DNA from: a virus
Taxonomy: Duplodnaviria > Heunggongvirae > Uroviricota > Caudoviricetes
Reading direction: 5' to 3' (one strand)
Virus record (IMG/VR): IMGVR_UViG_2537562189_000012
Coordinates: 1-47,704 of that record
DNA: 47,704 nucleotides
A program made the position numbers. Numbering within the stretch: the first letter of the stretch is position 1; each line of letters starts with the position of its first letter. Positions 6,201-9,200 of the stretch are shown here, in pieces.

Positions 6201-9200
6201 CATCTTCGATAAGCGGCATGTTTCCGGCCAGAACGTCGCGGGCGGCCGCCTGGGTGACGTTCTCCACCAGCTTTCCGCCGTAGGTTTTGAGTCGTTGCCA
6301 TTTACGCGAATAAGAGTTAACACCCATGTAGGTGATATTCCCTTGTTCGATAACCGGAGACGGGTAGCATACAGCGCGTCCGGATGGTAGCTGTATGCGC
6401 AGCCACGCGCCATCGCGGCGGATTTTAAGATAACCGCAATACAATGTTTTTTGCGGTGTGGCGATTGTAGTGCGGACGGTGCGCTCCAGTTCGTACCAGA
6501 AATCACAGGTCGCGGGATGCGCCCGGCGCCAGAGACGTTTAAGTGAGTCGCAGGCGATAAATACCCGTTCAGAAAGCCCGTAGGTTGACTTGCGTTTAAC
6601 CGATTCGTCGTACCAGCTTTTCGCCTCGTGGATAACATCGCGGGGAATGTTTGGTAGTGCGGCGTTCGCCAGCTCGTCGAGATCGAGACCGTAAACCAGT
6701 GCAAAAGTGATGAAGGCCGACACACCACCACCATAACCCAGACCGAGTTCCATGACTTTACCGATCTGACGCATGTGTTTATCAACATCATCTGGTGCAA
6801 TATCGAAAGCTTTTGCATACGCCAGTCTATATAAGTCCGGACCCGTTCCGGCGTCGTACTCTCTGAATGCATTCAGTTTCCATTCTTCTCCCGCCAGCCA
6901 TGCCAGCATACGGCCTTCAATGTTCGACAAGTCACTTACCACCAGCTTTTTGCCTGTTGGCGCGATAATGCAGCCACGTAACGCTGAACTGGTTAGTTCC
7001 ATGATATTGTCAAACAGCAGGTCTGCACATCCGGCTTTCAGTGCTTCGATGCCTTCGTCTATTTGTTCCTGTTTTAGTGAAGGGCGGGGAAGGTTCTGGG
7101 GCTGGAATAGCCGTCCGGCCCAACGACCGGTACGTGACGCCCCGCAGAACTGTAGCGTACCGCGTAAGCGCCCGTCGTGGCTTACGCCTTTCATCAGTGC
7201 CTTGTATTTACTGGTGCTGGTAGTACTGGCCTGCAGGCGGATAGCCAGCAGTTCTTTCACGGCAGATGGTAAATCGGGGTCGGCAATACGACGTTCCAGA
7301 GTACTGCGTTGCATGTCTGGTAGCTCCACACCGTAGGATTCAACAATGTGCTTAATCAACGCGTCTCGTTGTGTGGCTGCCTGCACTTCGCCATCAGTCA
7401 TTTCCTGTGTACGCTTTGCCAGGCGCTTTTGTTCCTGGTCTACCGCGTCGATCGCAGCGCGTGCGAGTTCCACGTCCATGCAGACGCCCCGGTCATTGAT
7501 CTGCTGATCACGATGCCAGAGCGCCAGTTCTGTCCCCTGATAATTCCACTTCGGCAGACGTTTATAGACTTCGCGCATTGCCTCGATATCCAGTCCGGCG
7601 TAAGCAACAAAGCGCCGCCATTCTTCCGGGTGGGTTTTGCTGGTGGCACGGCGCAGTTTGCTGTTTTTCGGGCGGGGCTTACAGAACAGCTGGATCAGCG
7701 CTTTACCTTCTTTGTCCTTCGCTTTGTCTTGCGGGACGCCTAGTACTTCGCAGAGTTCCCCCAGAGACCCCGGGAGACCGTGCGCCAGCGCCTGCACCAT
7801 TGTGTCGCGCCAACGTTCGACTGGCGGTGCCAGGCGCGGCATTGCATAACGCAGGACGGTGCGGTCGAAGTGAGAGTTATGAAAATAAAGCAGGGTTTCA
7901 GGGGCTGCGATTGCTTCGTATAAGCCGTGTGGAATACCACTACCGGCAGTGATATCCCACACGTTTACGGGCCCGTCGTTGATTGCCCATGCGAACAGCA
8001 TCACTTCAACGCCTTCGGCATACGCATGGGTACCGTTCGTAATAGGGATTTCGCAATAGGTTTCTAGGTCACCCCATAGTATATTGGACATAAAATAACC
8101 TTGTGTGATATATGGTTATGTAGGTGTAAATAAACAAGGAGACGGCGGTGTTTAGCTTTGGTATCGGAATACTTTCATTGATAGGTATTATTGCTTTCCC
8201 CATTCTTTATATTTTAGGGAGAATAGTTCGGGCTGGTGGCGCATGGCTCGAACGTGAAGAAGGTCCTAAGGATCGTGTTCTTCCCAAAATTATAATTTTT
8301 GCGCTTATTGGGTTCTTTCTTGGGTGTTTGGCTCAGCCTGTATGGGACAGCATTTCGGCATGTAGAGACTATGGCAATCCAATAGGGAAATGTCTTTTTA
8401 AATTCAATGAATTTTAATTTTTAGTATTGCGGTAGGCTGGTTTGGATAATTATTTTCTTAAGCCAGCCTTTGTTATAAGAAATATTAAGCATCTACCCCT
8501 TCGTCAGAAGGGAGGCCGATCATTTCGTTGAGAGTTTCGCGTCGTATAGCTGGCGGAAGCGGAGCAGATGGTGCATCGGCTGGCAGAAGTTCTTTAGCTT
8601 CAGGCCACTCTTCCAGCAGGCGCTTAACTGTGCGCACTTTACTGAGTGCAGCACTGACATTCTGTCGAATGTCTGACTCATCGCTCTGTATCTGCTCATA
8701 AAGTGCATCAAACCCGTAAAACTCTGTAACTAGAGGGTCATTTGCCAGAAGGGTAAATTCCCCCGGCGCGATTTTGTGAATATGGTCTGGTGACCCTGAT
8801 TCATATCCTCGATAGTTACCGTTGAAATAGACGGTAACCCGAGAACCTGCCAGATTCAGACACATGTAACACTCTTTCCTGATAATATTATTGGCTGTTT
8901 TTAATGCTTCGGGGACTTTTGATACCAGTGTTTCTATTTTTTTTATAATTTTTAATATTTCAGCTTCTTTCTCTACGCCCCCGATAGCTGCAAGCCGAAC
9001 ACGTTCGGCCCATTCAACACGAGCAGCTCGTAGTGCTGATTTACGTTTGGGGATACCCGCTTTCTTAAGTGCGTTATTGATGATTTGAGTTTTAAGGTGA
9101 TTAGTTAATACGGGCTGTGACATTATTCTTTCCCTCATGAGATACCCCAGCACGTAGCTGGGGGATGAATATTTTTAAATTAGTGCTTCAGCATCAGTAC

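Follow-up and report, generated by a model that had tools for sequence, protein, structure and literature searches.

A small two-helix membrane protein of an unnamed family as hotspot cargo in the replication operon of an Stx2 prophage

The phage exclusion proteins T4 Imm and P22 SieA are embedded in the membrane and act at the step of DNA injection, and Imm is similar in size to the 89-aa protein that is the subject of this article. In temperate phages, the genes known as morons are recognized by their differing guanine-plus-cytosine (GC) content, by their own promoter and terminator and by their expression from the prophage (PMC3594210); one of these morons, gp15 of HK97, determines a YebO-like exclusion protein. 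The locus to be compared with these systems lies in a 47,704-nucleotide stretch of viral DNA (IMG/VR record IMGVR_UViG_2537562189_000012, positions 1 to 47,704, referred to throughout as the window), which is a Shiga-toxin-converting (Stx2) prophage integrated beside yfhL. Its early replication operon includes polA, encoding a family A DNA polymerase, and a gene for a single-stranded-DNA-binding protein (SSB) of the DUF2815/Enc34 type, and between these two are found an Nmad5-family gene and, on the opposite strand, the small gene for the 89-aa protein (Table 1).

That this gene is real, that its product is a membrane hairpin and that it is accessory cargo at a hotspot are conclusions that, taken together, can be held with great confidence. 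What has come to light is a new, uncharacterized family in a known niche, that of the small membrane protein carried as prophage hotspot cargo.

An unnamed family and its predicted fold

A word-indexed search retrieved only Escherichia coli copies of the protein, 98-99% identical, and so suggested that it was an orphan, but this was overturned by an exhaustive HMMER scan of 1.84 billion representative sequences, in which there were 121 homologous clusters (defined at 50% identity) at E<1e-3, and 37 at E<1e-10. Nearly all the homologues are 83-97 aa long and align from end to end, and the N-terminus defined by the GTG start codon lines up with theirs. (Some longer 'fusion' homologues, P0039 and P0046 among them, seem to owe their length to start codons called too far upstream, and they provided no indication of a domain.) In an alignment of 58 members, G59, C72 and C82 are invariant, while G7, G55 and Q63 are kept in at least 90% of the sequences. 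The family consensus runs AW..R...PK[D/E]RV, followed by the second transmembrane (TM) segment with G55xxxG59, and then QPxWD....C...G.P...C. The tail of every member has exactly two cysteines, and their C-x9-C spacing is preserved in 58 out of 58.

The stretch 8148-8417 is thus a true gene, and it belongs to a conserved but unnamed family whose members have ~88 aa. For the copies in Proteus and Morganella prophages, the ratio of non-synonymous to synonymous substitution rates (dN/dS) is ~0.13-0.16, and for a closer pair it is 0.26. Across the same two prophages, dN for the small gene is 0.25 vs 0.06 for polA and SSB, so the protein is under constraint, yet accumulates non-synonymous change about four times faster than these replication proteins. 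(Among the E. coli alleles, which are at least 99% identical and show one non-synonymous difference, selection was immeasurable.) Automated annotation had given the open reading frame (ORF) only as 'hypothetical protein', and in the BH100 MG2014 genome no coding sequence was called at its position, as might be expected if there were no gene here at all, but a chance ORF in an AT-rich spacer carrying only regulatory signals for polA. Against this stand the 121 homologous clusters with their invariant cysteines and glycine, a dN/dS far under 1, a confidently predicted fold and a strong Shine-Dalgarno sequence; the reading is already refuted by the conservation of the family, and we give it practically no credence.

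Scans of the 89-aa protein against Pfam, NCBIfam, PHROGs and PADLOC returned only noise, as did scans of the 58 members against the first three of these, apart from one member that matched phrog_8574 (function unknown). Nothing significant emerged from a search of PDB sequences with the family profile, nothing with E<1 from a Foldseek comparison of the predicted structure with BFVD and PDB, and no match from tblastn searches of INPHARED phages with either the window protein or its Proteus homologue. A family of more than 120 clusters with well-marked invariant features (GxxxG, QPxWD and C-x9-C) lies outside the coverage of every curated database.

A reading of the window from its sequence alone (hereafter, the sequence-only reading) had suggested that the product was a small membrane protein with two TM segments, and this is borne out, both by the homologous clusters and by the two hydrophobic segments (residues 1-30 and 42-67). 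An AlphaFold2 model, made with the 58-member alignment as input, has helices at residues 8-34, 44-74 and 79-86, with a mean predicted local distance difference test score (pLDDT) of 86.9. The loop between the first two helices has a mean of 4.9 lysines plus arginines across the 58 sequences, compared with 0.07 for the N-terminus and 2.3 for the tail, and in 53 of the 58 it has more than both outer segments combined. From the positive-inside rule, the loop would therefore be cytoplasmic and both termini periplasmic, and a periplasmic C-terminus fits well with a conserved disulfide in the tail. The protein is thus predicted to be a helical hairpin of the inner membrane, N-out/C-out, with a basic cytoplasmic loop (AW..R...PK[D/E]R). 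The GxxxG motif (G55, G59) in the second TM helix could pack onto another TM helix, and the short C-terminal helix is predicted to be stapled at the periplasmic face by a C72-x9-C82 disulfide. The protein is placed in the envelope, in silico, by its pair of hydrophobic helices, by the positive-inside statistics and by the cysteines conserved on the predicted periplasmic side.

Mobile cargo at the polA-SSB junction and elsewhere

The polA, Nmad5, SSB and DUF2800 genes are all on the minus strand, so the sequence-only reading was right in placing an 89-aa ORF, with a GTG start and an AAGGAG ribosome-binding site, on the strand opposite to its neighbours. It was right also about the AT-richness of the DNA: the GC content of the ORF is 0.396, and of the spacers on either side 0.36 and 0.31, compared with 0.542 for polA, 0.454 for Nmad5 and a window mean of 0.522. 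Over positions 8000-8500 the GC content is 0.375-0.435 vs 0.55-0.59 within polA, and at third codon positions (GC3) the ORF has 0.30 vs 0.57 for polA.

Both the polA and the SSB flanks were present in 159 of 5426 complete E. coli genomes. Homology of the window to these relatives ends at the polA ATG (or 27 bp past it) and again at the SSB stop codon. The 393-bp region from 8092 to 8484 is found in 32 of the 159, in one copy each and with at least 99% identity, and nowhere else in the 5426. In other prophages (class B, the present one being of class A) Nmad5 is retained, and a 229-aa gene is found in place of the cassette that includes the small gene; the motif AAGGAGAC also precedes this unrelated cargo gene. 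Among 60 genomes drawn evenly from the 159, the junction was occupied by the small gene with Nmad5 in 12, by the 229-aa orphan with Nmad5 in 10, by a 209-aa orphan alone in 25, by a 199-aa orphan in five, and by a 166-aa orphan and a BRO-N gene in one each, the other six giving partial matches. The four orphans are all on the plus strand, have a GC content of 0.29-0.39 and match no family, and three of them have TM segments. An empty polA-SSB site was not seen among the relatives examined, some other gene being always there, which points to the exchange of one gene for another at a hotspot and not to the plain addition of DNA. The insertion supposed by the sequence-only reading, at 8100-8480, therefore needs some redefinition: the piece swapped between classes A and B nearly matches it, but the whole variable unit is larger and takes in Nmad5, and although the segment does vary among close relatives, it is not a simple recent insertion, since homologues occupy the same site in other genera.

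These homologues are found head-to-head with polA in prophages of Serratia nevei (50% identical to the window protein), Proteus/Providencia (36% identical) and Morganella, the polA products of the Serratia and Proteus prophages being 73-76% identical to that of the window. In Proteus and Morganella, the slot that is occupied in E. coli by Nmad5 contains instead a SIR2 gene matching the PADLOC candidate PDC-S25. In this respect the gene is conserved at its site in relatives, which counts in part against the insertion first envisaged; on the other hand, it is on the opposite strand, is followed by its own terminator-like hairpin and occurs also in unrelated contexts. Its position would nevertheless accord with a function in the lytic cycle of the phage itself, linked to replication, whether as a membrane tether for the polA replisome or the incoming genome (phi29 p16.7 and p1 provide a model for membrane tethering), or in the timing of the early operon through divergent or antisense transcription: the head-to-head arrangement is common to all four of these host groups, including E. 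coli, the divergence of the small gene scales with that of polA, the two start codons in Proteus are just 17 nt apart, and several of the E. coli replacement genes also encode membrane proteins. We think this quite unlikely, however, in view of the absence of the gene from 127 of the 159 close E. coli prophages, and from the induced, plaque-forming vB_EcoM-606R2 among them, the location of other homologues far from any replication genes, and the combination of opposite strand, own terminator and persistently foreign GC3.

Other members of the family are diverse in their situations. Some adjoin integrases. In lambdoid prophages of Pantoea and another genome, they are on the opposite strand at the junction between the lysis and terminase genes, with Kiwa a few kb away in one case. 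One is in an integrative and mobilizable element (IME) of Paraburkholderia, with an ApeA-like HEPN gene nearby and a DUF3892 gene between the two, and another is on a Sulfuricurvum plasmid. In each of the six prophage contexts checked, GC3 was lower in the gene (0.23-0.37) than in its flanks (0.35-0.76), so AT-richness is a lasting trait of the family and not a sign of recent arrival. In view of these various locations, the gene is a long-standing item of mobile cargo rather than a recent one-off insertion. Matches to PADLOC-DB 2.0 were confined to neighbours of the gene in relatives (PDC-S25, PDC-S35, and PDC-S58/ApeA), with none for the 89-aa protein. Both phage 606R2 and a Serratia remnant encode PDC-S35, a TIR protein, just past polA. 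A fixed two-gene system with Nmad5 or SIR2 was considered and rejected: the partner changes from lineage to lineage, and the orientation is convergent.

Two further contexts bear on a different possibility. The gene for homologue P0015 lies 29 bp downstream of that for an ABC exporter of 697 aa, the N-terminus of which resembles C39 peptidases, and an H-NS gene comes next; on a longer contig covering the same context (L017) a HlyD-like protein is encoded a few kb upstream. In a polysaccharide locus, another homologue is encoded after a 1281-aa protein of RTX-like type. Microcin immunity proteins resemble the 89-aa protein in size and in their two-TM architecture. Together with the extension of the family beyond prophages to a plasmid and an IME, this might indicate a form of lysogenic conversion that alters the envelope without excluding phages, the protein acting either as an immunity-like orphan that counters a bacteriocin or microcin directed at the membrane, or as a small regulator whose GxxxG helix engages a sensor or transporter of the host membrane. 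It seems unlikely to us, as the exporter context is one of ~12 examined, no bacteriocin gene was identified beside any copy examined, and the window and five other prophage lineages have neither toxin nor exporter nearby.

Nmad5 is itself movable cargo: only some one in three of the E. coli relatives has it between polA and SSB, and in the Proteus and Morganella prophages (L019, 13616-14237; L036, 11680-12294) it is found at a more distant point of the early operon, past DUF2800 in the direction of the repressor. Point mutations in nmad5 of Dhillonvirus have been linked to escape from the Tmn defence system (2025, PMC11846954). There is a second variable site just downstream of polA (window 5595-6027; L001 3188-3949, L002 2603-3364 and L013 6052-6813 in relatives). 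It contains a 114-aa PerC/ANR-like ORF and a 67-aa ORF in the window, an Ant antirepressor in the prophage of strain CFIAFB20190157, and the TIR-like protein matching PDC-S35 in vB_EcoM-606R2 and the Serratia remnant. A NUMOD4/HNH-type homing-endonuclease-like gene (window 11033-11551) follows DUF2800 and is absent from several relatives, and another relative (L004, 3707-4222) has an HNH endonuclease gene between SSB and DUF2800, which suggests that mobile endonuclease genes hop within the replication operon. A limited literature search found no earlier description of the polA-SSB hotspot, which could be mined for lysogen-protecting or anti-defence genes, including the orphans of 166-229 aa, the SIR2 protein PDC-S25 and Nmad5.

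Table 1. Coordinates in the window of the small gene, its signals and surroundings, and the toxin region
Feature	Position	Strand	Remarks
89-aa two-TM protein gene	8148..8417	+	GTG start; from hydrophobicity, homologue alignment and AlphaFold2 model
Shine-Dalgarno AAGGAG	8136..8141	+	6 nt ahead of GTG
Terminator-like hairpin	8434..8477	+	13-bp stem with G-U pairs at 8434-8469, then UUUGUUAU; from folding
Weak candidate promoter, TGGACA-18-TGaTATATG	8085..8114	+	-35 over polA start codon; read by eye from sequence, not called by scanner
Whole variable segment (hotspot)	8092..9174		Bounded exactly by polA ATG and SSB stop codon
390-bp cassette	8119..8508		Separates class A (this prophage) from class B
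polA, family A DNA polymerase	6028..8091	-	Conserved left flank, divergent from small gene
Nmad5-family gene	8485..9153	-	Co-resident hotspot cargo
SSB, DUF2815/Enc34-type ssDNA-binding protein	9175..9723	-	Conserved right flank
DUF2800 gene	9739..11040	-	
Q	17627-18049		
stxA (Pfam RIP)	18387-19346		Downstream of Q
stxB (SLT_beta)	19359-19622		Downstream of Q

E. coli CFIAFB20190157 has a Stx2b prophage next to yfhL with which the window is collinear at ~99% identity, and Stx2b prophages at yfhL are on record (PMC12029490). In addition to the genes of Table 1, the window encodes a CI-like repressor, a primase and an integrase. The replication module (polA, DUF2800, DUF2815, SNF2, Prim-Pol/DUF5906) is not lambda-like, whereas the late genes are lambdoid. 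Positions 12716-13445 fall outside the alignment with the CFIAFB20190157 prophage, which is collinear in other respects, and could represent a further accessory slot; they include an ORF for 174 aa (12827-13351, plus strand) without a Pfam match, beside the CI-like repressor gene (13771-14451). At the right end, where the alignment with the reference prophage has ended, a 414-aa ORF (45900-47144) has a YadA-like membrane anchor domain of the trimeric autotransporter type and may be either adhesin cargo or a gene of the host flank. A Proteus mirabilis relative (L020/L021 1-3539, compared with window 1-1873) occupies the same chromosomal neighbourhood, recO-pdxJ-acpS-ferredoxin yfhL, while the Morganella relative has a different integrase and adjoins holE.

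Transcription of the small gene and its possible role

The small gene is followed by a terminator-like hairpin that is specific to its own strand. For the stretch 8410-8490, the folding free energy of the plus strand is -23.2 kcal/mol (z -3.9), compared with -10.6 (z -1.6), and no U tail, for the minus strand, the weakness of the latter fold being due to the conversion of G-U pairs into mismatches. The hairpin should therefore stop the transcript of the small gene, but let through read-through of the early operon from Nmad5 into polA. Terminator-like hairpins on the plus strand are also found 3' of the Proteus and Serratia homologues. Shine-Dalgarno sequence, ORF and hairpin make up a self-contained unit on the opposite strand. 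The small gene is not part of the replication operon, in view of its strand, its own terminator-like hairpin and the occurrence of its relatives in a lambdoid late region, an IME and a plasmid. Upstream, the weak candidate promoter of Table 1 may have a counterpart in Serratia, where the same -35 position reads TGGACA-17-TAGATT. A further promoter-like sequence, ATAACA-16-AATAAT (8449-8476, minus strand), lies in the spacer 3' of Nmad5 and would direct transcription towards polA, on the strand antisense to that of the small gene; the frequency of sites of this kind in the region is that expected by chance, and the sequence is no more than a lead for independent transcription of polA.

With its oligomerization-type GxxxG, the protein would be a small hydrophobic hairpin; its gene is antisense within a strongly transcribed operon, an arrangement that recalls type I toxin-antitoxin loci; and in some contexts defence candidates adjoin the gene. 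It might determine a toxic membrane protein, whether an effector of abortive infection, a toxin that the antisense early transcript restrains, or a modulator of the holin or antiholin kind. But the protein, with its 89 aa, conserved disulfide-stapled periplasmic tail and structured cytoplasmic loop, is unlike toxins of the Hok, Ldr and Ibs types, and Rfam revealed no RNA family within 7800-9300, and hence no antisense RNA. Holins, moreover, typically have charged cytoplasmic C-termini, whereas the tail here is predicted to be periplasmic, and the prophage has a separate cassette of holin, lysozyme and lysis protein/spanin genes. Toxicity is accordingly an improbable explanation. The more particular idea of a class II holin or pinholin was discarded: there was no match to a holin family, and the lysis cassette is ~14 kb from the small gene in the collinear prophage.

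The most economical reading is that the protein has a role in the envelope of the lysogen. This is favoured by the location of the gene on the opposite strand, transparent to the operon, by the persistence of low GC3 across hosts, by its repeated presence in the accessory parts of mobile elements of several kinds, by the defence candidates among its neighbours and by its relatively fast evolution. The small gene would be expressed by the repressed prophage, and antisense transcription reading through it would dampen that expression once the early operon is switched on. Its product would sit in the inner membrane of the lysogen as an exclusion or defence factor, where it might bind to the ejection or tape-measure apparatus of an incoming phage, or to an inner-membrane component used by that apparatus, and so block the entry of DNA, as do HK97 gp15, T4 Imm and P22 SieA; the GxxxG helix and the disulfide-stapled periplasmic tail would provide the surfaces for interaction. 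By analogy with those proteins, the most likely mechanism seems to be that incoming phage DNA is kept out at the inner membrane, though we propose this tentatively.

Several considerations weigh against exclusion. The promoter scan turned up no convincing sigma-70 promoter in the window and called no plus-strand site upstream of the small gene, so its expression in the lysogen is putative. Neither in sequence nor in fold was any homology to known exclusion or defence proteins detectable. The retention of a position beside polA in four genera could mean a role in the phage cycle instead, and the C39-type ABC exporter upstream of one homologue suggests a different role in the envelope. In most contexts, too, the neighbours have no match to defence genes, so that proximity to defence candidates is circumstantial.

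If the protein does bring about exclusion, the gene would have a part in determining which phages, other Stx phages and therapeutic ones included, are able to infect lysogens among Shiga-toxin-producing and uropathogenic E. coli. It is conceivable, if rather doubtful, that the family as a whole consists of unrecognized and widespread DNA-entry exclusion proteins, borne by mobile genetic elements (prophages, IMEs and plasmids) of Gamma- and Betaproteobacteria and Campylobacterota, in which the GxxxG helix of the hairpin and a periplasmic C-x9-C knob would jam the entry of foreign DNA at the inner membrane (by phage injection, and possibly by conjugation), and that the polA-SSB junction of this Stx-prophage lineage is a dedicated hotspot at which exclusion specificities are swapped.

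Comparison with described systems

Proteins giving immunity to microcins and to bacteriocins of the colicin V type are, like the protein described here, small multi-TM proteins of the inner membrane, and one homologue adjoins a C39-type ABC exporter; but no homology was detected, and neither the window nor the other prophage contexts have a bacteriocin gene close by. Such immunity genes are expected beside bacteriocin structural or export genes, an arrangement that is not seen in the window and is approached by a single distant homologue, that beside the C39-type exporter.

Family libraries, PDB sequences and Foldseek revealed no homology between the small protein and characterized exclusion proteins (HK97 gp15/YebO, T4 Imm, P22 SieA/SieB, Cor). 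In particular, it has no PHROG or Pfam match to either Imm or SieA; Imm is made early by a lytic phage and not from a prophage, and SieA is larger. The resemblance to the HK97 gp15 moron is closer in several respects: both are small inner-membrane proteins, encoded by stand-alone units within an operon of a temperate coliphage, with a composition distinct from that of their flanks and with homologues outside phages (PMC3594210). The two are not related in sequence, none of the 58 family members having a Pfam match; gp15 is encoded in the tail operon, and the small gene is in the replication operon; the protein described here has two TM helices and a C-x9-C periplasmic tail, and its exclusion activity is only inferred. 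Of the features attributed to morons (PMC3594210), the gene shares the restriction to some close relatives (32/159) and the distinct GC and GC3, which recur in five other contexts, and it has a predicted terminator of its own in the plus-strand hairpin with its U-rich tail. It departs from them in that a moron is a pure addition, the flanks being adjacent in relatives without the gene, whereas the site here was occupied in every relative examined.

The locus also resembles the hotspots of P2 and P4 and the sites of lambdoid morons, with which it has in common a fixed site between core genes and interchangeable cargo that is low in GC, often on the opposite strand and in some cases a candidate for defence. 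What sets it apart from these is its situation inside an early replication operon, at the polA-SSB junction of a yfhL-integrating Stx2 lineage with a polA/DUF2800/DUF2815/SNF2 module.

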